This document shows, in pieces, positions 29,201 to 47,063 of a DNA stretch of 64,000 bases; position 1 is the first letter of the stretch; every line of letters starts with the position of its first letter. The position numbers were made by a program, and so were the translations under genes. Source of the stretch: a virus; IMG/VR virus record IMGVR_UViG_3300027763_000038, positions 32,001-96,000 of that record, one strand, 5' to 3'. Under the pieces are notes generated by a model. It was not told where the DNA came from. It did not search any database and saw only the letters and a program-made list of their open reading frames with translations.

Positions 29201-30612
29201 GTCTGATTGTTCAATATACCGAGAACTAAATTATTTGTACTAGCTGATGAAACAGCATTAGTGTTGCCCATAACTAAATTATTAGTAACAGATCCACTAA
29301 TATTATTAGTATTGCCTAATATAACAGATCCAGTAATATTTTCAGTAATATTGGATTGACCAATCAATAATATCTGGTCTGGAGTACCACTAGTTAAATT
29401 ATTATTAATACCAATTAAAATACTTTGTGATAAACCATCTTTTGTATTAATATTACCCATACCTAAAAATAATAGCTTATTAGAGTTAGATAGAGACATA
29501 TCATTACCGATAAAAATACCACTAGTCATAGTATTTAAAGATTGATTTGATCCTATGGAGATTAATTTTGATCCTAGAATAGAATCAGAACTACCATAAA
29601 TATTATTATTGTCTCCAGTAACAGAAACTAATGACCCAACAACATTATTAGAATTACCAATTAAATTATTCAAGTTTCCTATGTATATGTTATTGTTGCC
29701 ACTGTTGGTGGCATAGGCTCCAAAAATAATACCTGATGATCCGGTGTTTGAAGATAATTGGGTTAAACCAATACTCATATCTCCATTAAAATTATTATTA
29801 TCTCCCATCAAAATATTGTTTGATCCAGTAAGGGAGTTGGAGTTACCAATAAAAATATTGGATATGCCAGTAATGGCTACAGTATCACCCATAGCAATAT
29901 TGTTAGCTCCAACAAATTTAGAATTATTAACCAGAGCAACAATTTTAGAACCATTAATAGTATTAACACTACCAATAATTAAACCACTATTAGATAATCC
30001 ACTATTATATGCTCCGATACTTGTGATACCCACGCCGGTCACAGCATTATTACCACCAACGACAGTGTATGCATAACCAGAAACGCTATTGTTACCGCCC
30101 AACACTACATTCTTAATATTAGCCCTAAAAACGGGAGTATTGGTACCGCGATTATCAACAGTAAAAAGAATTTCGCCACTAGTATAGCCAGTGATAGGAT
30201 CTAATATCTTAGAGATAATTTGTCCATAGGCAATTTCATTATAACTAGTATCTCTACCAGCCAAATTAATAGTAGCTGGTAAACTTCCTGATAGTGGTGT
30301 TGTTTGGGGATTATGAACTAATAATAGAGTAACCCCAGTAGGACAATTTGTTACGCTTTCAACAATTAGACCATCTTTAGAGCATGGAGCAACAACATGC
30401 AGAATAGCATCTGGTACACCCGTACCAATACCTAATCGTCCAGTTGAGGCATCAAAATACATCAAGCCATTGCCGGTTCCTTTAATGCTAAAATCAATAT
30501 CTAGCTTATTAATATTAAAAGAGCTAGCGACACCAGAGGTGTTTGATAGTTTTATATCTGGTGTTGTACCAGAACCAATATTTAGTATACCGGAAATTGT
30601 TGTGTCAGCCAT
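26245..30612 (-). CDS. tail fibre/spike with long G-x-x-N beta-helix repeat region
   Basis: GRLGIGTGVPDAILHV and RVGINTDSPTSSLSVSG fibre motifs; dozens of (I/V)(I/V)GxxN repeats (YadA-head-like). Confidence 0.75.
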   Translation of the reverse strand: MADTTISGILNIGSGTTPDIKLSNTSGVASSFNINKLDIDFSIKGTGNGLMYFDASTGRLGIGTGVPDAILHVVAPCSKDGLIVESVTNCPTGVTLLLVHNPQTTPLSGSLPATINLAGRDTSYNEIAYGQIISKILDPITGYTSGEILFTVDNRGTNTPVFRANIKNVVLGGNNSVSGYAYTVVGGNNAVTGVGITSIGAYNSGLSNSGLIIGSVNTINGSKIVALVNNSKFVGANNIAMGDTVAITGISNIFIGNSNSLTGSNNILMGDNNNFNGDMSIGLTQLSSNTGSSGIIFGAYATNSGNNNIYIGNLNNLIGNSNNVVGSLVSVTGDNNNIYGSSDSILGSKLISIGSNQSLNTMTSGIFIGNDMSLSNSNKLLFLGMGNINTKDGLSQSILIGINNNLTSGTPDQILLIGQSNITENITGSVILGNTNNISGSVTNNLVMGNTNAVSSASTNNLVLGILNNQTGVYIDSVGTITGSGKRPAGTVINSIVAGINNVVYAGNSHIVVGNKNAISGSNSNTLGSYNNLKNSTSAYNVGNSNSLVGSQLGTVGSKINLVGQESIVFNTADKKMDVFGSGNIVLGYNQVVNNGIAVGTSNKLDGLNNIVYGRNNTLGYTRNTCTMTDVGGTVINIPTKGLLAQYLQGDKILVSFQNPPSVSNTFTRTITAIVEDTIEPITYITLDTPIILDRTNGYYYMNNAFDDNNTASTVVSGLIMPYQRMGGAGGAEVNPVYGSNNIVVGSNNKYPFSSGLILGYNNYVSGVRNIAIGYGLTGVVDDTIYLGTNNSNKMILDNYKIVFNSGKLQQNLIVKSASDSTSVINANLNNNRVGINTDSPTSSLSVSGLFTTTDFKLGFSAPDAYVLTTNTNGVGTWQLPVRLSGDNGGMLFKVTDKGASGITEIAYNPTIKQLGFNLGGYNEVYINSTGLFLNDEAATYKVRIRGSGGVDFARVLFDTDYVNHKINFYNVSGNSGNFHNIGLNSGLTLPVSLTGTYLYVNNNGKLSSYVTRPNTLLFSNSAAYSTGNSSLRWINSQQVMAMGASVDVTEDTVPTNGYDSYYNIILSSNSQVDTVFNNRGLGNRFSVLNSGLIELKGFHISPTGAVAINTPAANLSTYNPKAALYVNGKAWVTELKVGNDTAPSGYYLRTDASGNIRFSNLDINNQFTAYSTDIIGNSYPLNVVSTAQGADGSFITNFGFTKRNSNGSQFTDKDDGAYVAYNGYAWVTASGLKAYQTQVETSNPQSCPGIAFGYKPSVTSTYNSHSFAGGSFNHNDVNRVYDGSSQYVQYYLRTRTTGPNGVGNPLVTNWSKSSVISDETSNNCINFNDFYSLSSAQYDRVWGYKISVSVLWQSGVQGGPQGPRKFAGTYEIEGGVYRSAAGTEFYKFGNENVRYYGDTMPSVMSLSTEIRNTSSIPRLSIVASGGGGWTALWSATARVNQLNHPGANPLYGSV

Positions 30613-33600
30613 TATTTTCTCCCTAAAGCGCCTTCTGTTTGATCACTAAGAGTACCCATAGCTCTACCAACTTCTGCAACAACCATGTTACTGATTGCTG
30701 TTTCACTGAGCTGCTTTAACACTTCTGCTCCATTAAATACTACTTCAACTTTATGATTACCCATAACATTAATAACTGGTGGTAAGTTTATTGCTTTTAA
30801 TTGGCCAATAAATTCTGCAAATTTTGTCGTAAACTGGCTTAATCCATCCATATTGGGTGAGGATGAGCCTCCACTATTAGATACACCACCACCAGCACCA
30901 GATTCATCAGTCATTCCACCATTAGCTAAATACTTAACGCTACCACCACGACTATATCGATTATTGTTTATAGCTTGTAATAAGGGAAGATTTTGCTGGG
31001 CTGATGCTCGGTTAACAACAAACTCGCCCGGTGTTAACATAGCAGGAACAGTATCGCTTCCCCTTGGAATATAAGGAATCATCATTCCATGGTTAGCATA
31101 AATCATTCCACCGTATTGTTTATGAGTTGGTTCGGTGGTTGGAGGTGGGGGTGTTTGTTCTGGTTTTTTCTCTCCTGCAACTGAATTACCAGAAGCTTGT
31201 GATGCTTGTCCAGACATTATTTCGGGATGTTTCTTAAATAATATTCGCCATCCAGCATCAATAGCATCGCCTTCTATTTTTGCTCTTGCTTGACCATTAA
31301 GTATATCTAAAATACTCTTACCATTAACTCCTATTTTGCTAGCTTTTGGATCACGCTTTAAAATTGTATAAGCCTGTAAAGAATTATTGTAAATTGTTGT
31401 TAAATACTTATGTCTTTGTGTGTCTATGTCATATTGTTTTTTAGCATTAGTTTTAATTTCATCAGCTGATAGTTTACCCCATACTGACCAATATTTGTCT
31501 GCTAATCCTTCAGCAGTTAATGACTCATTTATTGCATCTGCTTTTAAAGCATCAAACATTTGTGGACTAGTTTCAGCTTCATTTTTAATTTGTAAGATTA
31601 ATGAGCCAGTTTGAGTTTTAGCGAGTGATCTCTCCATAATTATTTTTTGTTTTTCTTCTTCTGTTGGCGGCTGTGATCCTTTTGGGACACTACTAGATGC
31701 ACCTGCCATATCGGCCCAACCGCCGCCTTTAGCATATATGACTCCTCCCTGAGAATAAGCTTCAGTTTTACCATTATTAATGGCTTTTAATAGAGGTAGA
31801 TTTTTTTGTGTGGCAGCTCTGTTTACTACAAATTCTCCGGGTGTCAACATTGCTGGAACAGTATCTGTTCCTTTTGGTTCATAAGGAATCAACTTGCCTG
31901 TCTGTGCATAAATTACTCCGCCAGAAGCTTTATATTCTGGTTTAAGACTCAAAGGCCCGAGCACTTTACCATTGCTATATTTAAAATCCTGCGGTAAAAT
32001 ACCAGGAACAATTGTTGCATTTCTTTGATAAATCTCTTTTGCTCCTACTTCATTATAATATGTCTCTCTAAATTTATTAGGAAAGTCTATTCCACCAAGC
32101 TCTTCTGGAGATACTGCAACTAAATCATTAATATTGGTAAAAGGATTGTTTTTTAATTTAAATCCTATATCTTGACCAAGCTGTTCTAATGCATCTATTA
32201 GATCTTGATGTCCAGATTGTTGTAAGTCATCAACAGATGCTTTACCTCTAATAAAATCAGCTTCAGCTTTAGCTTCAGGATTTTTTGATATCAACTCTAA
32301 CAGAGTAATATTCAAAGCTTTAGCTGTATTTTTAAGTTTTTCTTCTGTTCTTTTGATATATTGTGATTTTACAGATATTAATTCTTCTCTGAATTTTTTA
32401 GCAGCCTCTATTGCTGCTTTTTGTTTGGGTAAATTATCTACTATTTCTTTTAGATAATTTTTTCTATCTTCTACATTTTGTTTATTATTATATTCTTTGT
32501 TATTTTCTTTGTTTTGTTCTGTTCTCTCTTTTGATTCTTTTCTTATTTGTGCATCAGATTTTTCTACAACAGTTATAAGTTTTCCATCTTTGCCTCTTAT
32601 GGTACTTGCTACTTCTCCATTTTCTTTTCTTTGTTGTCCCTGTTCTGTTAAAGATCTTCCTTTTGGATCTTGCGGATCTGGATCATTTAAGCCTTTAAAT
32701 TCACTACCACTTATTGCTAATAGTCTTTCAAATGCTGCTGTTGGTCCACCATCTTTCAGATATACTACTCCACCAGAGGAATAACCCTTACTATCACTAC
32801 CACCTCCACTATTAATTGACTTTAATAAATCAAGATTATTTCGTGTAGCCTTAGCATTAACAACGAATTCGCCAGGAGTTAGCATAGCAGGAATAGTATC
32901 TGTGCCGCGAGGTTGGAAATTAATTAATTTGCCTGTACTAGCATAAACTGGTCCACCATTGTCAAATCCATATGCTTTCATTATCTTTTTAAGTAATTCT
33001 TTTGCTAAACTATTCTTTGAAAACTCACTAGTTTTCATAGATTGTATAATATTTGTAAATACTTCTCTATTATCATCTACTAACTGTTGACCACTATAAG
33101 GAGAATTAGTAACCTCTTTTAAAGGAGCCCATCCTTTTGGATCTAGAGCAAAATTTTGAATATCTGGTTTCAAACTATCTAATACGTCTGTCTTCATAAA
33201 CATATTATTTTTATCTTGTAAAGCATGTCCCAATTCATGTTTTAATAGTTCTGGATCTTGATTTTTACTAGAAATTTTCTTTGTTGTTGCATCATATTGT
33301 GCATCATATTTAGGAGATTGACTATTGGGTTCAAATGATTTTACTCCAAATTGTGCGTCAGCATATTCTTTTAATTTTTTCTTACCTTCTTCACTACTAG
33401 TATATGGATATAATTGTTGAGCTAGATCAGAACTTAATCCTTTAATTAAACCTCCTGTAGAAGCATATATAACTCCACCCTTTTCTCTATATTGTGGAGG
33501 TAATGGTGGTGGTCCTTTTGGTGGTAACGGAGGTGGTCCTCCTGCTTGTCTTGGAAGTGGAGGTGGACCATTTCTAAGTGGTGGGGGTGGTGGAGGTAGT

Positions 33601-36600
33601 GGTTTTGGTGGAACGGCAACTGCTGGTGCTTGCTCTGGAGGATTTAATAATTGATTTCCCTGATTTATTCCAGCCTCAATATTTGAAATTTGACTTTCTA
33701 ATGATCTAACTTGAGTCTTAAATGCTTTTATCTGAGCTTCTTCAACCCTAATTTGTTGGAATAGAAGGGTTTGTTCTAAGGATTTTCTGAGTGCTGGAGT
33801 TACTCCTTGTACATGATCTAAATTTCCATTCTCTAATGCTCTATATAGCATATCTACTTCTTTTGTATTACCAAAATTTCTACCAGTATTAATAGTTCCG
33901 CCAGGACCCATAATCATATGGGCGTCGCTATTTCCTCCTCTGATTTGTTGATCTAGTCTACTAATCCCTTCAGGATCTTTAGCAAATTTTTGAATATCTT
34001 CTAGAGTTAATTTTCCATCTTGTTTTATACCATTAACTATCAAGCCCCTCGATTGTCTAGCTATTAATTCTTCTGGAGTTTTAGCTAAAGGTTCAAGAAT
34101 TGCTGATTTTATATAGGCCAAAAATTCATCAGATTGTACTGTTGACTGAGTGACTTGTTTTCCTGTGGCTCTAGCAAAATCTTTTAATAAAAGATCTGTA
34201 TTTACTTTGTCTCTGGTAAGAGTATATTTTGTATCTCTAAAAGAAAGCTTACTACCAAAAGTCTCTCTTCCATCATGAATACCTTCCAATAAGTCTTTTT
34301 CTTTATTATCTCCCAAAAGAGCCTTTCTCCTGTCAGTAGCTTCTTTGATCTTTTGGTTTATTGTTGTTACTTCTGACTGAACTTGAGCTTTTCGTTTGGT
34401 TAGCTCTGCAACTTTTTGTTGTACCGCAGTATTTGTTGCGGATTTGGGTTTTGGAGGCAATGTTCTGGCGGCAGATTTTTGACCTTTACCTCTTGCTCCT
34501 CCTTTTGACCTAGCTGCGCCCGCAACAGCAGTAAACATACCCCAAGCTGCGCCAGCTCTTTGATATAGTGACTCACCCATTAAACCTGGTCCTGGTGGTG
34601 GGCCATAAGCACTAATTTCTCCTTCTGGAGTATGCCACTGTCTCCCACTGTTGTCCGTAGTTATTTTTGCTTGTTGTGTTTGTAATTTTGCCTGTTGATT
34701 AGCAAAGTCTAATTCTCCTTGGGTTGGAGTCATTTCTGGCATATAGTTCTGATTTTGTTGGACCAATCTTGGGTCCATTAATCGTGATCCTGGAACTAGC
34801 ATACCGTCTTGAGCATAGATAAGTCCACCCATACTACGATATTCTAGATTAGGATCAGCTCTAAGCAATTTAGCTTTATTTTCATACATATTCAATCGTT
34901 TGATCGGATCTTTTACTTTATTAAGGTCTGCTTGTGTCTGTTTACCTAATCTAATCTTAGGAAATTGAAATTCTCTTATAATAGCATCTATTTTTTCTTG
35001 AGGAGTTTGTGGTTTTGCAGCAGGGGCGGGGCCACCAGCGGGTACAGGAGCACGAGCACGACCAGGATCGCCAGCAGGAATACCATTAACAACTGTTGCA
35101 TCAGCAGTTGCTGCTTTTACTGTTTCTGGGTCTAATTTATGTCTAGCTTCTGCGGCTGTATTGTATTTATGAATTCCTCCGCTAAAAAGAGTAGCACCAG
35201 CTACACCACCACCCAACAATAAAGCTCCTGATTTTAAACGACCAGCAATGTTTTTTGTTATAGTAGAAAAAATACCTCCTTTGGCTCCTGATATATCATC
35301 GACAACTTTCGCTGCATCACCCAAGTCTCCTTGAATAGCAAGTGTTTTAATACTATCTATCATTTTTGCAAATGCTGACGTTGCACCTGTTGTATTCTTT
35401 GCAATATCAAATTGTTTTGTTATATCAGCGGCAGATGATAAGTCTAAACCTCCATTCTTTATCTTCGTTTGAAGTTCCGATAGAGCTTTTAATTCATCGG
35501 TATTTAATCCTGCTGGCATGTTTTTTGCTGTTTGAGTTTTAATAGCATCTAATACTGCATCTGACTTTAATGGTTTAAATTTCTTTAATGTTGCAAATAG
35601 TCCCACACCGGCCATAGCTGCTGTTGCTGCTTTTGCTGCTGTTGCTGCTTTTACTCCTGCTGCTATTTTAGCAGCTCCTGCTACTTGTCCAACGCCCTCA
35701 ACAGTACTTGCCAATGATAAACCAGCACCTGTCAAATCTCCTCTCATTACGTCAACAACAGCAGCAGCAACATCAAAAGGTATGCCAACACCAGGAGTTA
35801 AGCCTAACATACTATATTTTAAACTTAGATCATCTAATGACATTTCTTGCTCTGGAACAATATCATCTCCTGTTCCTAATAGTCCATCTCTACCAGATAC
35901 AAAAAGTATTTCTTTATTTCTCTTTTTAATAGTTTCATAATAAGAGATTATTTTTTTTGAAGCTAAGAACCTTGTGTCTTTATCCATTTCTGGAGATGAT
36001 TTACTGGTAACTAAATTGTTTATATCTTCCTGTAATGATTGTTCAAAAAGCTCCATATCCTTTTGATACTGTTGAAGCATTTTAGACTGAGCTTCTTGTT
36101 TGGCTTTTTGCTGTAATTTGATATTTGTATTATAATCTACTGTTTTAAACTCATTTCCACTTATTACTGTGGGTATAGAGACTCCTCCATTAACCGATAA
36201 TGAAGGAACTTGAGTTCCGTCCTGAGCATAAATCACACCACCTTTACTTAATGCTTTAGGATTACCACCTTGATTAATAGCCTTTAATAATGGCAAATTC
36301 TCTTGGGTGGCTTTTCTATTGATTACAAACTCTCCCGGAGTAAGCATCGCAGGAACAGTATCTGTGCCTCTTGGCTGGAACTGGATCATTTGTCCACCAT
36401 TAGCAGCATAAACCATGCCACCAGTCTGTAATCCTTGAGCAACTCTTGCTCTAAACCAATTAGGAGAAGGCAACCGGCCAAACTTAGAACCCAAGCCCAA
36501 AGTTACTTGAGCATCATTAGCTTCTTGATAAATATCAGTAAAACTATTATCAGATGCGCTATCAAAAAATGCTGGAATTCTAGCTTCTGGTTTTAATTTT

Positions 36601-39600
36601 TTATCAAACAAATAGTCTTGACCTAACCATTTGTCGCCATCTCCATGATACCATTTTTCTAAAGATTGTACATTTTTAGAAATAAAAGCCATGGTATTTC
36701 TATCAAAATATGGAATACCAATACCTTCTTTAAAATTTGACAAATCATTGACGAGTTTATCCATCAAAACAAATCTTGTATCACTATCATCAAATTCAGT
36801 ATATGGATTAAATACTAAATCTATTAGTTCTTGCAAAGTGGTTGGTAGATTGTCTTCGGATAGTTCTTTTTGTTTTCCTAATGAATTTATTCCAACTTTT
36901 CTGCTTTTTCCCTTGGCTGTATTAGCAAGTAAATTTTTCCAATCATCATTAAGGGCTAGTCCTGTAATTCTTCTCATTAATGTTCCAGCACCAAGACTAC
37001 GAAATAGATCTATTAATTTTAAATCACTAGCCACAAATTGTCCAAATAATGAACTATTGCCATTAGCAAGACCAGAAAAAGCCTGAGATGCTCCAGAAGC
37101 TAGTGTCCATAGTTCTTTGAGTCCTTGATATTGATTAGGATTATTTGATTTTGTACCAATATTACTTAAATATGCTCCAAACTGTTCCATAACTCCAGAA
37201 GCATAAGCTGCCATATTTTTGGCACCGCTTGGTTTCAAATTAACCATATTAGGAATTTTACCAATATATCTTGATAACCAACTATTGCTTAAACCTGGAA
37301 CTTTTGCTCTACCAAATATGCTTAATGCTCCCTTAGCTGTTGCTCTAACAGCTTTTGGAAGATCCGCATCACCTACTCCTTGGTTACCTAAAGCTTTTCC
37401 TTCTATCTGGTCAGAACCTTCTGCTGCTTGTATTTTTGCCGCGTCTAGTGCTTCTAGTATATGTTTGCCAACATTAAATGTTGTTATTGAATCCCTATCA
37501 AATGGTGTTATAAGAGTATCTACGTCTGGGAAAGTCATATCTTGACTTTTTATAAAAGATCCCTTGAATTTAGAGCTTAATGAATCTAATAGTTTTTGTC
37601 TTTCTCCATTATCTTTTCCGCCATTAACAATTAATTTGATATAATCTGTCAAATTTGTAGTAACATTTCCAACATTAGACCCATCTGCTATAGATTGTAA
37701 TAATTCTTGTCCTGTAAATCTGTTTACTCCGTTCGTCGTAATTCTTCGTTTACTAATATCTAAAGATTCAAAAAAGGTTTTATCATTTTTTGCTGGTAAC
37801 AGGTATTTACTAATATGGGGATTAAATTCATTAGTGTCTGGCTTAAATAGTTTACCTTCCCATTCGTCATAAGAAACTTTAAAGTCTAAATTTTGACCAT
37901 TAAGACTAAGTGTATCTTTAAATTGTTTTTGAATATTAAAGGAGTTTAATAGATCATTTACAGGTATCGATAAGGTTTCGGGTGGTAATCTTTTCATAGA
38001 AATTCCACCAGGATTTTTAGCAGTCAATTCTTTTTCTATTTTTTTTCTTAAATCAGCATCAAGATCTTCTAAAGATGCATTAACAATATATGGAAATGGT
38101 TTAGCAGGAAGATCCATAGCCCCAGCTTTATCTACAGAAAAAATATTAATTGGAACATCTTTTACAAAGTCTCCAATAGCGGGCTTCTTTAAATTCTTTC
38201 CACTAAATACTATATTCTTGTCTTTGGCTGCTATTGGATTAGCAGCATATTCCATTATGAGCTTATTTATAGCTTCTGTAGCTGAGTCTTGTAGAATCAT
38301 TAAAGAACCAGCATTTTCAACTCCTTTTATAGTAGGAAAATATTTTTCAATTAAAGTTTTACCTTTAATAATTTCTCCAATAGAATTGCCATTATAAACT
38401 TTAGATAATTGTGCTTGAATTTCTAGAGCATGTTTAGCATCTTCATCAATAACAGTATCCTCTTTAAATGTTGGAGCATTCAAGAAATCTCTTGTTTTTT
38501 CATATTCTGCATAAGCTTCATCATTTTTAATTTTTAAATCTGCAATTTTATCATGGGAAATAATATTTTTTGTCAAATTATTCATTACTAGATTTCTACC
38601 AACAATACTGCCTTTAGGCTTAAAGTCTAAACCAGCTAATGATGATCCTGGTGCGGCACCTACTGGAGCTTGGAAGAATGGAGGATCTATAGATATTGCA
38701 TTTTCTTTAACTCCACCATTTGTTGCTTCATATATTTGGTACATTCTATTTGTAGCCACGTCCAAAGTTGGCATCCCGCCAGCTTCATCGGGAACAATAA
38801 TACCATATGGATTACTTATTATATTTGAACTAAAAGCATCAGGAATATTTAGTTTAAAATCAGTAATATTTGGCACAGGACCATAATTATTAGGAAGATC
38901 AAACTTTGGTAGTTCCCATTTAATGTTATTTTCTGCTGCTTTTCTTTTATATTCTTCAAAATTTAATTCTTTAATATTTGTAGTCCCAAAAGAACCCTTG
39001 TCTAATGAATTTATATGAAAAAAAGTATCATCTGATTTAATAGCAGAGAATCTGTTTAATAAGGCTTCTTCTGCCGGATCTCTTTGATAATCGACCTCTT
39101 TATTATTTTTTCTTCCTATTATTGGACCAAAACCAGGAACTACTACTCCAGCAGTTGGTTCTAGGTCTTTTAGATCATAATTATCTTTTGTTGGTTCAGG
39201 CGTTTGTTTTCTACTATCAAGAAAAGTATAAACACTAGGAGTATTATATAGTTTATTTTGAGCTTTAAGCAAATCGTTGATAACGTTTGGAGTATTTAGA
39301 TTTAAAAGTTTAATTTGACTTATACTAGAAGACTTAGTAAAATCAGAAGGATCTCCTGCATCATGAACGAAACCTCCACGATCATAATATCTTACAGAAC
39401 CACCAGAACTATATTTATGACTATTAATAGATTCTAATAAAGATCTATTATTTGCAGTTGCTTTTTTATTAACAACAAATTCACCAGGAGTAAGCATGGC
39501 TGGTACAGTATCACTACCCTTTGGCTGAAAATTAACCATTTGGCCAGCTTCAGCATAAATAATACCACCAGCTGCTCTTGCTTGTGGCTTTACTGGTACT

Positions 39601-42600
39601 AAATTATTTATATTAGCTGCTATATCTACCAGTTGTTGGTTAAAAAATGTTAGTGTAACATCTGATAAAGCAGTTGCTAGAGCTTTAGCGTTAGCTTCTG
39701 TTGTATCTTGTGCTAAATGTTGATCAATATTAGCCAAATGTTCATTGGCACTACTTTGTAAAGCTATAGCCTCATTATAATAAGTCATAGCAGCAGCAAC
39801 AGCTGGATCTGCTTGTGGATTTCTCAAATTATTCAAGACATCCATCATCATGGGACTAATACCCATACCAGATTCTTTTAACATACTTTCCAAAACATTG
39901 GCACGAACATTAGATGCTTGTCTACCTTCTCCTAAGAAAGGCATAATATCTTGTAATGCACCGAGAGTTTCTTTTCTTTCATTAGCAAAAGCTGTTTGAG
40001 CCGCTCTCATGGCTTCAAAACCAGATGCTCCACTTTGTAATGCTTCAAAATATGCTTTTTGAGCACCTGTACTACTATTGATAGTATTAATTTGACCATT
40101 AATATTTTTTTGTAATCTATTTAGCGCATTTCCTAAAGAAGCTGCTTCGTCTGGGGTTGCTGTAGCAAGTTTTTCTATGAAAGATACTTTACCAGCATTT
40201 CTTTGTTGAACATCTTGAATTTTTTGCATAGCTTCTGAAGCATTTTCCGTATTATCTGCCAAAAATCTTAAGGCATTATAGCTTTCTCTTAGCGCAATAC
40301 TATTATTTTGTACATCTTTACTGAATTTAGCAAAATCCTCTGCTCCAGCAGCACCTCTTTCTCCTGCTTGTGCTCTGGAACTTTCTGCTATATTTTTTTC
40401 TGTATTTAGTTTAAGAATTTGATTAAATATTTTATCTGGATCTGTTACTCCTCCCGTAAATCTTCCGACTCTTGCTTGTGTTCTTGCTCTTGATTTTTCT
40501 AAATTTATAGATTCACCAAAAACTTTAGATAATTCTACTCCACTATTAATAAGAATATCTTCTGCTTTTCTTAGTTTTTCTCTGCTAGAAATTTCAAGAT
40601 CAATAATTTTATTGATATTAGATGAATATGTATTAAGAGCACTATTAAAATGATCTAAAGCCTTAACTACAATATCTGATACTCCTTTTGCTGTGTCTAA
40701 AGTAGAACTAAGTCCAGCAACCTTTTCCTGTAAATCACCAAAAGATATTTTATCATCACCAGATTTTCTTAGATCAGCAATAGCTTTACCAATCTGACCA
40801 GATAATTTATCAACAAACTCTGGTGGCAAACCAAGATCTTTTAATGCTTTGTTGACATTAGTTGTAATTTTAGAACCAATAATCTCATCATTAGCTTCTG
40901 GATTTTGTTGAACAGTATCATTTATGGTTTTCATTATTGTATTTTCGGCTGTTTCGCCAACTTTTAATAATGACTTAACTAGTCCTGAAGATTGTCCAAA
41001 AAATCCTGCTCCTGTACTTTGTGCTTGTGATACTGATGCCCTGCTATAAGCTCTGGGATTACTGATAATATTTGATGTTTGTGAATTGATATTTTGAAGA
41101 GCAGCAGAGCCTGTCAAAGAGGCAATATTAGCATCTATAGATTTTTGCATACTGTCTAAAGCATTGGAAGTAGCAGATATTGCTTGCTCCATATTTTTAA
41201 ACATTCTATTAAGAGATCCAGTAAAAGCATACGTGGATCTTTGTAAAGCTTGTGCTTCTTTTTCTCTAAGAACAATATTAACTTGTTGTCTCGCTTTTTC
41301 TTCACCAGCATTTTTTATAATACTTTCTTTAATGCTGTTTATCTGGGCATTACCGAGACCACTATTTTCAACTTCTAATATTTTTTGTCTAATAACAGCA
41401 TCAGCATTTGCTAATGATTCAGAAAATTTATCAAAATTAGGATCAGAAGTAATATCTTTAACACTTTCTCCTCTTTTAGCTCTCTCTTTAAAGCTCTCAA
41501 GTAAACTATCTCCTAATGCACGACCCATAGCTGCTTGTTCTTGAGCTAGTTGAGGAATAATCTTATTAAATTCTACATTAGTATCCTCAGCACTATTACT
41601 TGCTCTATAATAGGCTTGACTTCCACCTAGTCTTAAAATATCAGATCTCTGTCTTAAACCTTCTTCTCCTCCAACTCCATTTCCAGTAAAAGTCGCTAAA
41701 GCATCAAAAAGATTAGTAAAAGTATAAAGAGTTCTTGTACTTAAAATATTTATTTGATTTGCAAATGCTGTTGATGCAGCTTCTAGCTTGTTATTGAGTC
41801 TGGTAAAATCCAAATTTTTAACATCTTTGCGTAGTACTTCAAATTCTTGTTCAACACCCTTCATCGCAAACTCTAGTTTTTTACTTTCTACTTCGAGTTT
41901 AAACTCGTTCATAGCATTTGTCATATCTTTAATAACAGAAACAGCAGTAAAAATAAATGATCCCACCATTAATAAGCGACGACCTGCTCTAACAGCATTA
42001 GCTCCCATATCACCGACTTCAGTACCAGCATCTCTTAAGTGTTGTTCAAAGTCCTGCAATTGTGAAATAACACCAATAGCAACACCAGCTGACTGACTAG
42101 CTGTGTTCAAACCAGCAGCAGCAGAAGCTTGACCAGCACTTGCTTTTGTATCCATTTGTTGACTAATCAACGAACCAACAGTAATAATACCGCCAGCCAT
42201 TAATAATCCTCTATTTCCATTATTACGATCTCTTGTTCCTGTATCTCTTGATCCAGCAGACCTAGCAGCTTCTTCTACCGCTTGTCTTCTGGCTCGAACT
42301 TCGGCACTTATAACTTGTTCTACATCTCTTTCTAGTCCAGCTCTTATTCTGGCTGCTCGTGCTAAATTACCATCAAGTCGAGCTTCTTCCGCCATAGCAT
42401 GTCTTCGTTGTCTAATATATTCTTGATTCATTTGATCAAGAGTATCTGCATCTCTCATCAGAGCCATCATGGTTCTTTCAAGATCATCACCAGTAGCTCC
42501 TATGCCAGCTAAATCTACACCTCCACCAACACCAGTAAGAACACCGCTTGCATTAACATTTTCAAAAGCTTGTGTTCGTCTAGCTCCAGCACCAGCCCTA

Positions 42601-45600
42601 ACTTCTGCTTCTACTTCTTCATCTGTTAATGTTCCAGCTGCTGTTGCTGCTGCTCTAGCAGTTACTGTTAATCTTTCAAGCTCTTCGTCCACCATGCTCA
42701 ATGCTTCTTGTATCTGTCTGCCATTAACATTGCCTAGTTGTTGTCTTATTCTAACTTCATTACGAGCTTCTTGCTGAGATTGCTGTAATGCTCTTTGTAG
42801 ATCATATAATACTGTGGCACTAGCTCCAGCTGCTCTGGCCATTAATATATCAGCATTATAAGCTCTTTCTGCTTCTGCTGCTGTGGCCTGATATCCTCTT
42901 CTTAATAATTGACCAGAACGTGATGATGCTACTCCAAGTTCTGATAATACTTCAGCTAGTTCAGAAAGTCTTTGTGCTGTATTTCCACTAACTCCTATAG
43001 TTTCTGTATTGACCGTATTTGGTCGTGCTGCTGGACCAGCCCTACCACCAAAAAATAGTCTTTGTACAGCACCTCCTGTGGCAAATTCTTGGACTCCTCC
43101 TACTAATCCACCACTATTAAATCCAGATACTTTATCTGCATGGTTTAGTCTATTAAGAGTTGGTGTTCCTATTCTACTGGCAGTCTTTTTATTAATAACA
43201 AACTCGCCAGGAGTTAATAGTGCAGGAACAGTGGTGTTTATAGAGCCTCCAGCAGCCTTCCTGTTTAATGAACTTAGTTTATTTGCTCCGATAGTTTGTA
43301 CTGCTTTTTTACGAATAACAAAGTCACCAACATTCAAATTAGCAGGAACCGTGTCTTGACTGCCAACTCCAGGAACTAATCCACCATCGGCGTATCCTCT
43401 AGCTTTAAGATAATTACCAATTTGACCTTTTAGTTCAGCAGGGCCGTTGAGTGTTAGTTTAGCATCAGTGGGGATATTTGGTGGAAGTTTGAAGTATTTA
43501 GAAGCATCCTTAAGACCGTCTGGGAAGTCGATACCATAATTAGTAGCAGCTTTATTAGCAATTGGTCCACCAAGCTGATGTATAATACTTTCAGCTATAT
43601 ATCCATGAGCATTAGCCTCACCCATTTTTTTACGATCAGAAGCCTTGACCTTTTTATTTGCATAATGATAAACATTCATTCCTGCTGCTCTTGCAGCATC
43701 AATATTTCTCTTATCATCATCAATAAAGGCACCTGGGTTAGCCTGCATATATTCAACTTTAAGTTGAGCAATTTTTTCAGCAGTATTATCTGGACCACCA
43801 ACGCCTTCAAGGTTGCGTATTGGAAGATTCTTACTAGCTAACCATTCACCAATCAAACCCATAGTATTTTTTGGTCTGGCAGAAATCACATGTAAATTAT
43901 CAAGTAACTGTGGGGTTTTTCTAACTTGAGCAACAAGAGCTAGTCCTAATTTACTAAGTGTAGCATTTTTTAAAGCATCCCTTACTTTATCTTTATCAGA
44001 AAATTCACTAAATCGTGGTTGTTTTGGATCAGCTAAAATTTTGTCAGCACCAAAAGCTAATGTTCTATCAAAGTCAGAATATATAGGTCCAACTTCTTTC
44101 AAAATCTGCCTGATCTGCATATTTTTAGTTGATTTTGCTGAAACAGCGTTCATTGCTTGAGTCATTCTCTTAATATCTTTTCCAGCAGCTTCTTTATCTA
44201 GAACGCCACTAGTAATTCTAACCTTAACTGGATTTTTTAATCCCGGAATTTCCATTCTATCAGTTGTGGGAAAAGCTCTTCCTTTGAATCCAGCGGCCCC
44301 AAACAAAAGACCATCTGTAGTTGCTTTTTGTATATCAAGATTATTTGCTTTTTTAATACCAGAAGTTTTCTCTGTATATTTTGCTAAAATTTTATCTTTG
44401 ATAACTTGTTCTGATGGAGTTAATGAATTTCTTTTCTTTAATATTCTTTGTATATCACCAGCATTTGATCCAGTGTCTTTAATAACTTCATCTAGAGTAA
44501 GAACTCTGAATATATCTGTAGAAGTAGCAGCTTTACCTGATGTTGGTGTTACAATACCAGCATCAACAAATTTACGAACTGAACCACCACTGTTAAATCC
44601 TGGTACTTTATTTTTTTGTTGCGTTTGTATCCAGCTATAAAACTTATCTTTTTGATTAGCTTCCCAAAAATAATCTAGATTACCTAAGAAAACATTAGGA
44701 TCTTTATCTTTTTTATTATTCTCTTTAAATAATCCATTTTTACTTCCTGCAAATCCAACCTGATTTTTATCAATTCTATATCTCAACATTTTACTAACCA
44801 AATCGATATCTTCAGTATCACTAGTTTTGAACTTAGCCTCACCAATTTTTTGTATAGCCTGATTTTCAGCTTTTTGAATTAGATCAACAGGATAATTAGT
44901 TTTATTACTAGCTGATTCCCAACCCTGTTTTAATTTAGAGATTATTAAAGTTTCATATGCTTTTCCCCAACGATTTTCTGCGCTTCCTAGTTTACCTACC
45001 TCAGTTTCTTTCTCTGACACCGCCCTTTTTCTGTTCTTTTGATTTTTAGAAGATTGGATAATATCATCAAGCTTTGCTCTGTTCTCTCCGCTAACATCGA
45101 CACCAGCATAGCTTTTATATCTTTTAGAGGTTGAGGCTTTTTCTGATGCCATATCCCAAATCTTTTTAAAGTCCGCAGGCTTTAAATCTATTGATCTTGG
45201 GACTATTCTAATTTTTGCTGAGTCCCCAACTGCTTCTATATTAGTTTTTCCAATAGCTTTCTGGATTGTGGATGATCCATCTCTTGTTAGCAATTGATCA
45301 ATAGTATAAGACTGAGTCAATCCACCATTACTAAATTTTTGTATTCTACCACCATTTGCTTTATTAAGCCTATGAAGATTGTGAGCACCAATAGCTTTAA
45401 CAGCACTTTTACGGATAACAAATTCACCAGGAGTTAATCTTGCAGCAATACTATCAGAATCTCCTTGACCGGGTACCAAACCACCAGTAGCAAATCCTGG
45501 GGCATTATTTCTTCTGCCTCCTCCAGTAAAACCTCTACCAAAACCACTAGCAAATTGGGTAATAGCTGAAGCACCTTTAACAGCGGCGAATAGTGTTATG

Positions 45601-47063
45601 ATTGGTAAAAGTTCTTTAGCAGCATCGGCAACTTTAATGAAAGCATTAGCTAAACTCAACCCTACTGTTACCATCTTCTGAAAACTATCAGTATTTCCAA
45701 CACTACGAATGAGTGTTAAAAATTCTTCTCTAGTTTTGGATATTTGGACAGCTAGTGCTAACTGACCTTTAGCAGCGTCTGTGGCTAAAGAGCCTTGTCC
45801 AGCTTGTGCGATCTTTAATGCATCTTGTGCTGTGGTAAATTCTTGAATCAATGGAATAACTTTACCAATTTGTCTAAAACCACCAAGTTCTTCTACTATA
45901 TTAGAAAATTTAAGATCTCTGGGATCTATTTTACCTAAGCCTTCACTTAATAATTGAACAGCTTTATATGCTCCTACAAATTTACCATCTAGATCTGTTA
46001 GATTAACACCATATTCTTTCAAGGCTTCAATAGTGTCACCTCTTTGAATTCTGGTAAAGATTGTTCTTAAGCCAGTGGCAATAGTTTCAGCACTTTCTCT
46101 GGTTGTTGCTCTAACGCTGGTGAAGACCGCAATGAATTCATTAAGAGCATCTTTGCCTTCACTTACTCCTTTGCTAGCTGCGGCAAACACACCACCGGTA
46201 CGCTGAATAGCAGCAATAATATCACTAGATTCCACAGCAAATCTTGCTGATACAGCATTAATGGAACCTAATGCTTTTTCTAGATCATTAGCTCCAATTT
46301 TAAACTGTCTCATTAAAGCAATAGAACCTTCTACTGTTTGATTCATATTATCAAAAGACGGGGTCAAAGCACTCAAAGCCAAAGCATTTAATGCTATTTC
46401 GGTTTCTTTAGCGCTTAAACCAGCTTGAGATAATGTTACTGCAACAGTAGCTAAATCTTTAGCTGCGACACCCAACTGACCAGATAATGAAGCTATAGTT
46501 ACCTGTAATTTACCTAAATTTTCTTTACTTTCACCAGTAACTTGAGAAATACGAGTTATTTGTTTATCAAAACTAATAAATTCTGAAATACCGCTCTTGA
46601 TAGCCCCAACTAATCCATAGATTAATACGGTAGAGCTACTAAATGCAGCAAAACGTCTAACAGCCAAACCAGCTTGATTACCAAATTCTTCTATCTCGGT
46701 TCTAGAGCCAGCGATAGCTCTTTGTGATGCTCTAGCAGAAGCTTGTACTCCTTGCAAAGCAGCAGATATTTGCCCAGCATGATTAGGCATACTTACAGCA
46801 GCAACACCCCTCATTGCATTCATCATATCTCTCATAGCGTTAGCAACATTTGTTGCCGAAGAAGCTGTTGTTGTGAGAGTAGAATTAAGATTATTTAAAG
46901 AAGAGTTTAAACCGGCAATTACTTGAACAGTAGCTGGGTTTATCTTAAGATTAACATTAGCAGAGATCGTACCTAATTGTTTTTTAATGTTAGATACAAT
47001 AACATTAACATTAGATGGTCCCTGTAAATTAATTTGTGCTGTTAAATTAAATCCTTTAGACAT
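30612..47063 (-). CDS. giant tape measure protein (5483 aa) with repeated linker modules and cargo domains
   Basis: N-terminal phage minor-tail/TMP domain (FDKQITRISQVTG...LSQAGLS...SAETIATGLRTIFTRI), position after tail tube and chaperones, SD GAGG, and eight DTVPAMLTPGEFV-type modules. Confidence 0.92.
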   Translation of the reverse strand: MSKGFNLTAQINLQGPSNVNVIVSNIKKQLGTISANVNLKINPATVQVIAGLNSSLNNLNSTLTTTASSATNVANAMRDMMNAMRGVAAVSMPNHAGQISAALQGVQASARASQRAIAGSRTEIEEFGNQAGLAVRRFAAFSSSTVLIYGLVGAIKSGISEFISFDKQITRISQVTGESKENLGKLQVTIASLSGQLGVAAKDLATVAVTLSQAGLSAKETEIALNALALSALTPSFDNMNQTVEGSIALMRQFKIGANDLEKALGSINAVSARFAVESSDIIAAIQRTGGVFAAASKGVSEGKDALNEFIAVFTSVRATTRESAETIATGLRTIFTRIQRGDTIEALKEYGVNLTDLDGKFVGAYKAVQLLSEGLGKIDPRDLKFSNIVEELGGFRQIGKVIPLIQEFTTAQDALKIAQAGQGSLATDAAKGQLALAVQISKTREEFLTLIRSVGNTDSFQKMVTVGLSLANAFIKVADAAKELLPIITLFAAVKGASAITQFASGFGRGFTGGGRRNNAPGFATGGLVPGQGDSDSIAARLTPGEFVIRKSAVKAIGAHNLHRLNKANGGRIQKFSNGGLTQSYTIDQLLTRDGSSTIQKAIGKTNIEAVGDSAKIRIVPRSIDLKPADFKKIWDMASEKASTSKRYKSYAGVDVSGENRAKLDDIIQSSKNQKNRKRAVSEKETEVGKLGSAENRWGKAYETLIISKLKQGWESASNKTNYPVDLIQKAENQAIQKIGEAKFKTSDTEDIDLVSKMLRYRIDKNQVGFAGSKNGLFKENNKKDKDPNVFLGNLDYFWEANQKDKFYSWIQTQQKNKVPGFNSGGSVRKFVDAGIVTPTSGKAATSTDIFRVLTLDEVIKDTGSNAGDIQRILKKRNSLTPSEQVIKDKILAKYTEKTSGIKKANNLDIQKATTDGLLFGAAGFKGRAFPTTDRMEIPGLKNPVKVRITSGVLDKEAAGKDIKRMTQAMNAVSAKSTKNMQIRQILKEVGPIYSDFDRTLAFGADKILADPKQPRFSEFSDKDKVRDALKNATLSKLGLALVAQVRKTPQLLDNLHVISARPKNTMGLIGEWLASKNLPIRNLEGVGGPDNTAEKIAQLKVEYMQANPGAFIDDDKRNIDAARAAGMNVYHYANKKVKASDRKKMGEANAHGYIAESIIHQLGGPIANKAATNYGIDFPDGLKDASKYFKLPPNIPTDAKLTLNGPAELKGQIGNYLKARGYADGGLVPGVGSQDTVPANLNVGDFVIRKKAVQTIGANKLSSLNRKAAGGSINTTVPALLTPGEFVINKKTASRIGTPTLNRLNHADKVSGFNSGGLVGGVQEFATGGAVQRLFFGGRAGPAARPNTVNTETIGVSGNTAQRLSELAEVLSELGVASSRSGQLLRRGYQATAAEAERAYNADILMARAAGASATVLYDLQRALQQSQQEARNEVRIRQQLGNVNGRQIQEALSMVDEELERLTVTARAAATAAGTLTDEEVEAEVRAGAGARRTQAFENVNASGVLTGVGGGVDLAGIGATGDDLERTMMALMRDADTLDQMNQEYIRQRRHAMAEEARLDGNLARAARIRAGLERDVEQVISAEVRARRQAVEEAARSAGSRDTGTRDRNNGNRGLLMAGGIITVGSLISQQMDTKASAGQASAAAGLNTASQSAGVAIGVISQLQDFEQHLRDAGTEVGDMGANAVRAGRRLLMVGSFIFTAVSVIKDMTNAMNEFKLEVESKKLEFAMKGVEQEFEVLRKDVKNLDFTRLNNKLEAASTAFANQINILSTRTLYTFTNLFDALATFTGNGVGGEEGLRQRSDILRLGGSQAYYRASNSAEDTNVEFNKIIPQLAQEQAAMGRALGDSLLESFKERAKRGESVKDITSDPNFDKFSESLANADAVIRQKILEVENSGLGNAQINSIKESIIKNAGEEKARQQVNIVLREKEAQALQRSTYAFTGSLNRMFKNMEQAISATSNALDSMQKSIDANIASLTGSAALQNINSQTSNIISNPRAYSRASVSQAQSTGAGFFGQSSGLVKSLLKVGETAENTIMKTINDTVQQNPEANDEIIGSKITTNVNKALKDLGLPPEFVDKLSGQIGKAIADLRKSGDDKISFGDLQEKVAGLSSTLDTAKGVSDIVVKALDHFNSALNTYSSNINKIIDLEISSREKLRKAEDILINSGVELSKVFGESINLEKSRARTQARVGRFTGGVTDPDKIFNQILKLNTEKNIAESSRAQAGERGAAGAEDFAKFSKDVQNNSIALRESYNALRFLADNTENASEAMQKIQDVQQRNAGKVSFIEKLATATPDEAASLGNALNRLQKNINGQINTINSSTGAQKAYFEALQSGASGFEAMRAAQTAFANERKETLGALQDIMPFLGEGRQASNVRANVLESMLKESGMGISPMMMDVLNNLRNPQADPAVAAAMTYYNEAIALQSSANEHLANIDQHLAQDTTEANAKALATALSDVTLTFFNQQLVDIAANINNLVPVKPQARAAGGIIYAEAGQMVNFQPKGSDTVPAMLTPGEFVVNKKATANNRSLLESINSHKYSSGGSVRYYDRGGFVHDAGDPSDFTKSSSISQIKLLNLNTPNVINDLLKAQNKLYNTPSVYTFLDSRKQTPEPTKDNYDLKDLEPTAGVVVPGFGPIIGRKNNKEVDYQRDPAEEALLNRFSAIKSDDTFFHINSLDKGSFGTTNIKELNFEEYKRKAAENNIKWELPKFDLPNNYGPVPNITDFKLNIPDAFSSNIISNPYGIIVPDEAGGMPTLDVATNRMYQIYEATNGGVKENAISIDPPFFQAPVGAAPGSSLAGLDFKPKGSIVGRNLVMNNLTKNIISHDKIADLKIKNDEAYAEYEKTRDFLNAPTFKEDTVIDEDAKHALEIQAQLSKVYNGNSIGEIIKGKTLIEKYFPTIKGVENAGSLMILQDSATEAINKLIMEYAANPIAAKDKNIVFSGKNLKKPAIGDFVKDVPINIFSVDKAGAMDLPAKPFPYIVNASLEDLDADLRKKIEKELTAKNPGGISMKRLPPETLSIPVNDLLNSFNIQKQFKDTLSLNGQNLDFKVSYDEWEGKLFKPDTNEFNPHISKYLLPAKNDKTFFESLDISKRRITTNGVNRFTGQELLQSIADGSNVGNVTTNLTDYIKLIVNGGKDNGERQKLLDSLSSKFKGSFIKSQDMTFPDVDTLITPFDRDSITTFNVGKHILEALDAAKIQAAEGSDQIEGKALGNQGVGDADLPKAVRATAKGALSIFGRAKVPGLSNSWLSRYIGKIPNMVNLKPSGAKNMAAYASGVMEQFGAYLSNIGTKSNNPNQYQGLKELWTLASGASQAFSGLANGNSSLFGQFVASDLKLIDLFRSLGAGTLMRRITGLALNDDWKNLLANTAKGKSRKVGINSLGKQKELSEDNLPTTLQELIDLVFNPYTEFDDSDTRFVLMDKLVNDLSNFKEGIGIPYFDRNTMAFISKNVQSLEKWYHGDGDKWLGQDYLFDKKLKPEARIPAFFDSASDNSFTDIYQEANDAQVTLGLGSKFGRLPSPNWFRARVAQGLQTGGMVYAANGGQMIQFQPRGTDTVPAMLTPGEFVINRKATQENLPLLKAINQGGNPKALSKGGVIYAQDGTQVPSLSVNGGVSIPTVISGNEFKTVDYNTNIKLQQKAKQEAQSKMLQQYQKDMELFEQSLQEDINNLVTSKSSPEMDKDTRFLASKKIISYYETIKKRNKEILFVSGRDGLLGTGDDIVPEQEMSLDDLSLKYSMLGLTPGVGIPFDVAAAVVDVMRGDLTGAGLSLASTVEGVGQVAGAAKIAAGVKAATAAKAATAAMAGVGLFATLKKFKPLKSDAVLDAIKTQTAKNMPAGLNTDELKALSELQTKIKNGGLDLSSAADITKQFDIAKNTTGATSAFAKMIDSIKTLAIQGDLGDAAKVVDDISGAKGGIFSTITKNIAGRLKSGALLLGGGVAGATLFSGGIHKYNTAAEARHKLDPETVKAATADATVVNGIPAGDPGRARAPVPAGGPAPAAKPQTPQEKIDAIIREFQFPKIRLGKQTQADLNKVKDPIKRLNMYENKAKLLRADPNLEYRSMGGLIYAQDGMLVPGSRLMDPRLVQQNQNYMPEMTPTQGELDFANQQAKLQTQQAKITTDNSGRQWHTPEGEISAYGPPPGPGLMGESLYQRAGAAWGMFTAVAGAARSKGGARGKGQKSAARTLPPKPKSATNTAVQQKVAELTKRKAQVQSEVTTINQKIKEATDRRKALLGDNKEKDLLEGIHDGRETFGSKLSFRDTKYTLTRDKVNTDLLLKDFARATGKQVTQSTVQSDEFLAYIKSAILEPLAKTPEELIARQSRGLIVNGIKQDGKLTLEDIQKFAKDPEGISRLDQQIRGGNSDAHMIMGPGGTINTGRNFGNTKEVDMLYRALENGNLDHVQGVTPALRKSLEQTLLFQQIRVEEAQIKAFKTQVRSLESQISNIEAGINQGNQLLNPPEQAPAVAVPPKPLPPPPPPLRNGPPPLPRQAGGPPPLPPKGPPPLPPQYREKGGVIYASTGGLIKGLSSDLAQQLYPYTSSEEGKKKLKEYADAQFGVKSFEPNSQSPKYDAQYDATTKKISSKNQDPELLKHELGHALQDKNNMFMKTDVLDSLKPDIQNFALDPKGWAPLKEVTNSPYSGQQLVDDNREVFTNIIQSMKTSEFSKNSLAKELLKKIMKAYGFDNGGPVYASTGKLINFQPRGTDTIPAMLTPGEFVVNAKATRNNLDLLKSINSGGGSDSKGYSSGGVVYLKDGGPTAAFERLLAISGSEFKGLNDPDPQDPKGRSLTEQGQQRKENGEVASTIRGKDGKLITVVEKSDAQIRKESKERTEQNKENNKEYNNKQNVEDRKNYLKEIVDNLPKQKAAIEAAKKFREELISVKSQYIKRTEEKLKNTAKALNITLLELISKNPEAKAEADFIRGKASVDDLQQSGHQDLIDALEQLGQDIGFKLKNNPFTNINDLVAVSPEELGGIDFPNKFRETYYNEVGAKEIYQRNATIVPGILPQDFKYSNGKVLGPLSLKPEYKASGGVIYAQTGKLIPYEPKGTDTVPAMLTPGEFVVNRAATQKNLPLLKAINNGKTEAYSQGGVIYAKGGGWADMAGASSSVPKGSQPPTEEEKQKIIMERSLAKTQTGSLILQIKNEAETSPQMFDALKADAINESLTAEGLADKYWSVWGKLSADEIKTNAKKQYDIDTQRHKYLTTIYNNSLQAYTILKRDPKASKIGVNGKSILDILNGQARAKIEGDAIDAGWRILFKKHPEIMSGQASQASGNSVAGEKKPEQTPPPPTTEPTHKQYGGMIYANHGMMIPYIPRGSDTVPAMLTPGEFVVNRASAQQNLPLLQAINNNRYSRGGSVKYLANGGMTDESGAGGGVSNSGGSSSPNMDGLSQFTTKFAEFIGQLKAINLPPVINVMGNHKVEVVFNGAEVLKQLSETAISNMVVAEVGRAMGTLSDQTEGALGRK
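30915..45494 (-). repeat. eight dispersed ~55-70 aa protein repeats within the TMP
   Basis: Approximate copies: 45321-45494, 43245-43394, 43108-43259, 39372-39575, 36217-36428, 32746-32966, 31719-31928, 30915-31115. Half copies (double-GG motif only) at ~44559-44597, 34803-34841, 33450-33492. Confidence 0.92.

Follow-up and report, generated by a model that had tools for sequence, protein, structure and literature searches.

Why would the tail tape measure protein (TMP) of a phage carry a sequence of the kind that bacterial polymorphic toxins place just ahead of their toxic tips? The question is raised by a 64,000-nucleotide stretch (the window) of the IMG/VR virus record IMGVR_UViG_3300027763_000038. 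The original prediction, made from the sequence alone, picked out the part of the window at 34845-36215 as TMP cargo containing a pre-toxin helical motif, followed by an Ala-rich stretch and a further hydrophobic helix. On the minus strand this segment is in frame with one very long open reading frame (ORF) and makes up residues 3617-4073 (457 amino acids, aa) of its product. Our comparisons indicate with high confidence that residues 3741-3804 are a genuine pre-toxin module of ~60 residues and four helices, homologous to the copies in toxins. The gene and the module are placed as follows.

30612..47063, minus strand: TMP gene (P0001), one uninterrupted ORF of 5,483 aa
35652..35843, minus strand: pre-toxin-type module, aa 3741-3804, recognised from phmmer matches to toxins, a reverse hidden Markov model (HMM) and helices predicted by AlphaFold2 (AF2)

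The 5,483-aa ORF is a phage tail tape measure protein, very long and mostly helical, in a tail gene block. The Pfam model PF10145 (PhageMin_Tail) matches residues 190-382 with an E value of 3.5e-21, and eleven TMP families of the PHROG collection match the ORF. The motif quoted in the original prediction proved to be correctly located, at residues 3752-3799 (nucleotides 35667-35810, minus strand) and in frame with the TMP. The module to which it belongs has the signature P-G-x-G...D, R-G-D-x-T-G-A-G-L-S, G-x-G...K.

A phmmer search with the 457-residue segment against 1.84 billion representative proteins (E<=1e-3) gave 69 matches. About 64 of these align to query residues ~120-200 only, the region of the motif, with 34-55% identity and E values from 4.5e-8 to 1e-3. 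Three are giant TMP relatives of 4,878-5,762 aa, aligned over nearly the whole segment, and a fourth match, 500 aa long, is TMP-like and shares their delimiter sequences; a further match, P0011, was rejected as spurious, its alignment resting on fibronectin repeats. Beyond the giant TMPs the best matches are toxins, not the ordinary Gly/Ala repeats of tape measures that would have spoken against the original prediction.

The relationship holds in the reverse direction. An HMM of 64 positions, built from eight toxins of Bacteroidales type VI secretion systems (T6SS) and from nothing else, matches TMP residues 3743-3801 over HMM positions 3-61 (E 5.6e-11 among 203 proteins), scoring 36 bits in the full TMP and 46.8 bits on the isolated domain. 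The highest score among 6,000 composition-preserving shuffles was 11.5 bits. Ten of the 13 columns that are invariant or nearly so in the alignment of the module family (A5) are retained in the TMP copy (G14, P17, G20, D24, A28, R34, G35, A40, G52 and K59); the substitutions are Y at L10, D at S31 and E at P49, of which only the last is noted in all giant TMPs. As the match spans the full HMM, the shuffled sequences score far lower and ten signature positions are kept, the resemblance is best explained by homology and not by Gly/Ala composition. Nor is the module a repeat, since the TMP, the window and the entire 108.8-kb record each contain a single copy.

The AF2 model of the segment (56-row alignment, mean pLDDT 65) is all-helical, and the module is predicted as four short helices at 127-137, 144-157, 161-169 and 175-187 in segment numbering, with pLDDT 85-89. 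Near the end of the module the sequence reads as one G-x-G-x-x-x-G. The Ala-rich stretch that had been noted after the motif is also there: Ala, Lys and Gly together make up 0.63 of the 30 residues that follow the module in the TMP, and in toxins their mean is 0.44 at this place, against 0.28 over the whole proteins. These 30 residues are enriched in basic residues in the toxins, as they are in the TMP.

Bacterial toxin relatives of the module

In Pfam scans of the phmmer matches DUF4280, a PAAR-like domain, was found in 13 proteins and RHS repeats in 4, with single cases of eCIS_core, PT-HINT, Ntox8, Ntox28, Ntox33 and Tox-REase-7; deaminases were also present. In these proteins the domain order was always delivery part, module, toxin tip, and the tips that could be identified behind the module were nucleases, deaminases or Ntox domains. 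In P0009, for example, DUF4280 (4-121) is followed by the module (165-238) and an Ntox46-like tip (284-363), and the VgrG-like P0039 has the module at 535-601 and a deaminase at 748-851. P0017 carries the module at 564-637 and Ntox8 at 643-711, in P0033 an eCIS_core domain (122-197) precedes the module (214-285), and in P0068 the module leads directly into a self-cleaving HINT domain.

In Rhs proteins the module starts 7-30 residues past the end of the TIGR03696 match (Rhs_assc_core): the core ends at 431 and the module begins at 439 in P0058, at 96 and 103 in P0022, and at 188 and 218 in P0008. Rhs proteins cleave themselves at the end of the core, freeing the toxin fragment. Given this known cleavage and the position just after the core, the module would be the first part of the fragment that is freed with the toxin. 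In 259 proteins other than TMPs the stretch C-terminal to the module has a median length of 172 residues (10th-90th percentile 99-227), which fits a toxin tip.

The module is common. Larger profile searches returned 478 and 558 clusters, and at least 558 protein clusters, mostly T6SS effectors of gut Bacteroidales, carry a module for which there is no matching Pfam or NCBIfam model. Among the matches listed nearly all are DUF4280 proteins, a dominance that reflects the flanking columns included in both search profiles; some carry Ntox46, GH-E or Endonuclease_NS_2 at the tip, and one bears the name "PAAR-like protein [Phocaeicola sp.]". The longer module proteins are Rhs toxins with AHH, transglutaminase or HINT parts. 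The named loci belong mostly to gut Bacteroidales (Phocaeicola intestinalis, Bacteroides, Parabacteroides, Prevotella, Alistipes and Muribaculaceae). A scan of genome contigs with a single protein gave no match.

Two loci illustrate the setting. In Phocaeicola intestinalis (L008) TssC, two Hcp genes and VgrG are followed by a protein of the order DUF4280, module, toxin, and then by an ORF weakly similar to Tsi6. On a Vibrio tasmaniensis plasmid the module lies ~130 aa from the end of the Rhs protein WP_170213767.1, whose gene is followed by an Imm26 immunity gene. At one other Bacteroidales locus a divergent second copy of the module (L011:14763-14957, E 7e-6) was seen ~6 kb downstream of a DUF4280 toxin; this copy may be an orphan toxin module.

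Relation to PT-TG

The original prediction had likened the motif to the pattern ahead of toxin tips in toxins of the Rhs/PT-TG type. The Pfam PT-TG family (PF14449) has a cut-off of 23.5 bits, and the HMMER filters remove most matches above E~0.1. PF14449 gave no match at E<=10 to the 457-aa segment or to an 83-aa sequence around the motif, and no candidate anywhere in the phage record. It was absent from the families listed for sets of 66 and 57 toxin homologues and had no match in Phocaeicola genome G001, which carries the homologue L008. No PF14449-annotated protein was among the best 120 matches of each of two profile searches of a 5.8-billion-protein set, and there was no PT-TG match in SPbeta phage or in five genomes behind module loci. 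In 883 genomes (81, 401 and 401) from the class and phylum of one Bacilli metagenome-assembled genome, one sub-threshold PT-TG match was found (L082), and the module HMM does not recognise this PT-TG-like sequence.

The module nevertheless resembles PT-TG in several respects. Like PT-TG (Zhang, Iyer and Aravind 2011, PMC3113570; Becerra Soto et al. 2026, PMC13483458), the module is alpha-helical, ~60-68 residues long, and in its bacterial homologues immediately precedes the variable toxin tip, and also HINT where there is one; it also occurs with T6SS (VgrG) and other delivery types. In the PT-TG logo Gly, Asp and Arg are conserved inside a span of 15 residues, and so is the TG that gives the domain its name (PMC13483458). 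The phage copy, which reads R-G-D-L-T-G-A-G-L-S, has a G-D-x-T-G core, and the TG recurs at this position in several toxins. Among the searches the one positive pointer came from the ESM Atlas, where the nearest named clusters were PT-TG, with a score of 0.90 and 15 of 30 matches, the 135 shared features being in the range that the tool describes as "chance or distant relative".

There are also differences. The consensus of the module family is G-D-x-x-G, so that the Thr of TG is variable and not conserved as it is in PT-TG, and the Pfam model matches no copy. In L082, the only PT-TG-like sequence compared, the spacing from TG to P-G-x-G is ~10 residues longer than in the module. PT-TG has been described mainly for Gram-positive toxins of the LXG/WXG type, whereas the module family is commonest in DUF4280 effectors of Bacteroidales. 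Judged by these searches, the module is a pre-toxin family without an existing model, PT-TG-like in position, length and helical fold; we count it as unmodelled because PF14449 recognises neither the copy in the phage nor those in the related toxins. A distant kinship with PT-TG is about as probable as not. The toxin half of the earlier claim stands, in that the motif is homologous to a module ahead of Rhs and other polymorphic toxin tips, while the link to PT-TG, as it was worded, found no support from the Pfam profile in the TMP or the toxins.

The module block and its possible roles

The module stands within a longer segment, and the parts on either side of it, all of which are encoded on the minus strand, are as follows.

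36216..36242, minus strand: upstream delimiter GGVIYAQDG, aa 3608-3616, closing a TPGEFV module (motif scan; kept in P0002-P0005)
35898..36134, minus strand: two long helices opening the segment, aa 3644-3722 (AF2 helices 28-71 and 79-106, pLDDT ~80-92)
35862..35897, minus strand: conserved SGRDGLLGTGDD motif, aa 3723-3734, a predicted loop (AF2) just upstream of the module
35574..35651, minus strand: Ala/Lys-rich linker into a Gly/Ala hydrophobic helix, aa 3805-3830 (hydrophobicity, linker composition)
35229..35573, minus strand: helical region without a recognised fold, aa 3831-3945 (AF2 helices, pLDDT ~64-83 for part)
35172..35228, minus strand: most hydrophobic helix of the TMP, aa 3946-3964 (lowest summed Hessa-2005 energy)
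34998..35084, minus strand: Pro/Ala/Gly-rich linker, aa 3994-4022 (sequence reading; pLDDT <50)
34830..35000, minus strand: conserved helical tail, aa 4022-4078 (kept in P0001-P0004; AF2 helices 405-453, pLDDT ~79-90)
34803..34829, minus strand: downstream delimiter GGLIYAQDG, aa 4079-4087 (motif scan)

Four giant TMPs and the IMG/VR contigs L074 and L075 share this layout and its position: two long helices, an SG.DG..GT.DD loop, the module, the Ala/Lys linker running into a Gly/Ala hydrophobic helix, the helical region, a second hydrophobic helix, the Pro-rich linker and the conserved helical tail. The loop, 7-18 residues upstream of the module, is kept in P0001-P0004 and L074. It is a loose look-alike of the DPxGL end of Rhs cores, with no match to an Rhs core profile, and a remnant of an Rhs core upstream of the module was ruled out, as an NCBIfam scan of the segment (E<=1) gave no Rhs model. 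The region at aa 3831-3945 is conserved in the giant TMP relatives only, and has no relative in Pfam, PHROG, NCBIfam, PDB or the Atlas. No match to the 457-aa segment was found among Pfam, PHROGs, NCBIfam or PDB sequences, by tblastn against GenBank phages with segment and motif as queries, or in a single-sequence scan of IMG/VR with the segment.

Hydrophobicity was summed as transfer energy on the unweighted Hessa-2005 scale in 19-residue windows across all 5,483 residues. The segment contains the first (3946-3964), third (3808-3826) and eighth (3752-3770) most hydrophobic of these windows, and the first has a summed energy of 3.4 against a TMP median of 20.8. The second hydrophobic stretch of the original prediction, GALLLGGGVAGATLFSGG (residues 3946-3963, nucleotides 35175-35228), thus turns out to be the most hydrophobic part of the whole protein. 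The helix is hydrophobic in P0003 and P0004 and partly deleted in P0002. Another cluster of marginally hydrophobic Gly/Ala helices, with the fourth, sixth and seventh ranked windows, is found at aa 1619-1711 (~41931-42209 in the window).

Other phage proteins also carry the module. An IMG/VR scan found a protein of 1,360-1,450 aa (L079-L081; L079:5611-9963, L081:5605-9684) with the module at residues 130-183 and a peptidoglycan-binding domain (PG_binding_1) in its middle; its gene adjoins that of a 1,842-aa "virion structural protein", and it is probably an ejected envelope-penetration protein. Three shorter phage proteins of 238-535 aa (L076:4510-5223, L077:1041-2051, L078:5707-7314) have the module close to the N-terminus, and nothing else in them was recognised as a domain, although the one in L077 weakly matches a TMP PHROG.

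The cytoplasm is where nucleases and deaminases act. As tips of these kinds behind the module must reach that compartment, TMPs are believed to build or prime the channel for the DNA, and the glycine zipper of Tde1 offers a parallel (PMC10240207), the module may have a role in membrane entry. On this basis we favour, with belief and doubt evenly weighted, the reading that the module block serves the ejected TMP in engaging the membrane or in translocation. As the TMP leaves the tail during infection, the block would reach the cytoplasmic membrane of the host, insert, and help to open a path for the DNA and the remaining TMP. The nuclease and deaminase tips of bacteria would need the same membrane-crossing step, and the module would be an entry element shared by phage and toxins rather than a toxin. 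The co-location of the module with the TMP's most hydrophobic helices, and its presence in phage virion proteins with peptidoglycan-binding domains, are in keeping with this picture.

Several observations weigh against a membrane-entry role. The helices of the segment are marginal, with summed energies of 3.4-8.5 and none negative, and are not classical transmembrane helices. The module has a conserved Asp and Arg, and its AF2 model is a compact four-helix unit that could equally be a soluble linker. Fold searches returned generic helical matches only: Foldseek with the 457-residue model gave helical hairpins and bundles (best E 0.2), VIA gave Z <=8.3, within its stated background for helical models, and the two opening helices (aa 3644-3722) matched generic helical hairpins. 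Two Rhs proteins hold the module near the N-terminus (P0082, aa 37-97; P0083, aa 189-250), a placement that fits poorly with a strict pre-tip role. The most recent study of PT-TG, the closest named family, moreover argues that this domain has no part in target binding or translocation, and proposes that it is a cleavage substrate (PMC13483458).

The nearest parallel in the literature comes from the T6SS DNase Tde1. Experiments showed that Tde1 requires its glycine-zipper N-terminus to permeabilise membranes and to be translocated into target cells, and this N-terminus resembles the C-terminal region of Burkholderia and Paraburkholderia TMPs (Ali et al. 2023, PMC10240207). There, as here, a short Gly-rich helical element is common to a T6SS nuclease effector and to phage TMPs. 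By the paper's description, from which the likeness is drawn, the Tde1 element is N-terminal (C-terminal in the Burkholderia TMPs) and has repeated GxxxG, whereas the module is a defined four-helix unit with conserved P, D and R, two-thirds along the TMP. We found no paper describing a pre-toxin module inside a tape measure, the Tde1 report being the nearest.

Membrane-active segments have also been ascribed to lambda gpH, T5 pb2 and the HK97 TMP (Roessner and Ihler 1986; Cumby et al. 2015, as reported in PMC10240207). Like the TMP studied here, these proteins are expelled from the tail, are thought to form or prime a channel through the envelope, and have marginally hydrophobic Gly/Ala helices; the present TMP differs in being 5-6 times longer and modular. 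We know of no report that they have a module in common with polymorphic toxins. On the toxin side, the N-terminal part of CdiA-CT and the transmembrane helices of prePAAR/Tse6 are described as domains for entry into target cells (Ruhe et al. 2020; Quentin et al. 2018, as reported in PMC10240207). These too lie between delivery part and tip and have been proposed or shown to carry the tip across the cytoplasmic membrane, but, set against the module by description only, they are either domains specific for a receptor or classical transmembrane helices dependent on chaperones.

A broader proposal, which we offer tentatively as a possibility, is that the module is an autonomous, portable device for inner-membrane entry, shared and exchanged repeatedly between phage DNA-injection proteins, among them tape measures and further virion proteins that are ejected, and the polymorphic toxins of T6SS, Rhs and extracellular contractile injection systems (eCIS). 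In a rough unrooted tree of 73 module sequences (60 columns, without usable support values), phage copies fall at no fewer than three positions inside the toxin diversity and not in one clade. This scatter fits with repeated exchange. The original prediction had the element borrowed from bacterial toxin systems; the tree gives no direction of transfer.

It is also conceivable, if unlikely, that the module is a processing site, a recognition or cleavage element that frees the downstream toxin tip in bacteria or a TMP fragment in the phage. Proteolytic processing was the first function proposed for pre-toxin domains, as its sites (PMC3482391), and the same proposal was noted above for PT-TG. The direct succession of module and HINT in P0068 repeats the order described for PT-TG and PT-VENN ahead of HINT (PMC3113570), and the TMP itself is built from modules set off by repeated delimiters. 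However, the known self-cleavage site of Rhs proteins precedes the module, which therefore remains on the toxin, no protease was linked to the module here, and ~13 conserved positions across four helices exceed the needs of a cleavage site.

Alternatively, the module might hold cargo in T6SS, eCIS and phage tails by binding to these tail-like injection machines, either on the inside or at the tip (Hcp or tail tube, VgrG/PAAR spike). Its commonest partners are indeed parts of the tail tip or tail lumen (DUF4280 PAAR-like, VgrG-like, eCIS_core and TMP). Such docking nevertheless seems quite improbable. A Lachnospiraceae genome (P0087) has the module in Rhs toxins that carry PT-HINT and peptidoglycan-binding domains, and the Lachnospiraceae are a Gram-positive lineage without T6SS; in Rhs proteins it lies, moreover, within the encapsulated C-terminal fragment.

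We think it very unlikely that the module and the ~270 residues downstream form a true toxin cassette, a membrane-damaging effector injected to depolarise or disable the host. The succession of module, Ala/Lys linker and ~270 residues up to the next delimiter does resemble the layout of a toxin, and the downstream part carries the most hydrophobic helices of the TMP. Its length, however, exceeds the 90th percentile of tip lengths (227); it has no recognisable toxin family or fold and no Atlas neighbour (Pfam silent, Atlas score <0.8); and it is conserved in all four giant TMP relatives rather than swapped as toxin tips are. Nor is the TMP followed by an immunity-like small gene: the ORF there (26245-30612), which begins at the TMP stop, encodes 1,455 aa. 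Finally, a chance resemblance of low-complexity sequence, as in ordinary TMP repeats, had in its favour the richness of the region in G, A and V and the silence of the Pfam, PHROG and NCBIfam models, but is refuted by phmmer matches that go specifically to polymorphic toxins, by the toxin-only HMM and by the shuffle control, and the module's single copy leaves it next to no probability.

Membrane entry, the role we prefer, would connect two problems that are largely unsolved: how the inner membrane is crossed by those T6SS, Rhs and eCIS toxins that act on cytoplasmic targets, and how the tape measure of a siphophage opens the membrane for DNA. A well-defined module of 60 residues found in both phage and toxins would link them in a small, testable object, and our results suggest that phage DNA injection and toxin delivery have an inner-membrane-crossing device in common. 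If the portable-device proposal is true, the route of a toxin to the cytoplasm would be the same as a step in the entry of a phage genome. If the module is only a linker or a cleavage site, its definition as a domain would still be useful, though of modest interest. The module profile serves in addition as an annotation marker, for toxin tips in bacteria and for envelope-penetration parts in phage virion proteins.

The tape measure gene and its neighbours

The source record is 108.8 kb long, with 33.6% G+C, no tRNA and an estimated completeness of ~73% (CheckV). Tail-fibre-like genes lie upstream of the TMP gene and giant ORFs downstream. One more long ORF, of 4,122 codons, leaves the window at its right end (57736-64000 and onward; 89739-102104 of the record, minus strand); Pfam gave no match over the portion inside the window.

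In the TMP-like fragment P0005, residues 376-451, which come after its next TPGEFV module, match the model of the alpha-pore-forming cytotoxin MakA weakly (E 0.007). Eight TPGEFV/VGDFV modules with GG.(I/V)YA flanks were counted in the TMP gene itself (30612-47063) and match TMP PHROGs only (phrog_25241 and phrog_35029). The three N-terminal copies are reminiscent of what we take to be a conserved C-terminal motif in lambda gpH.

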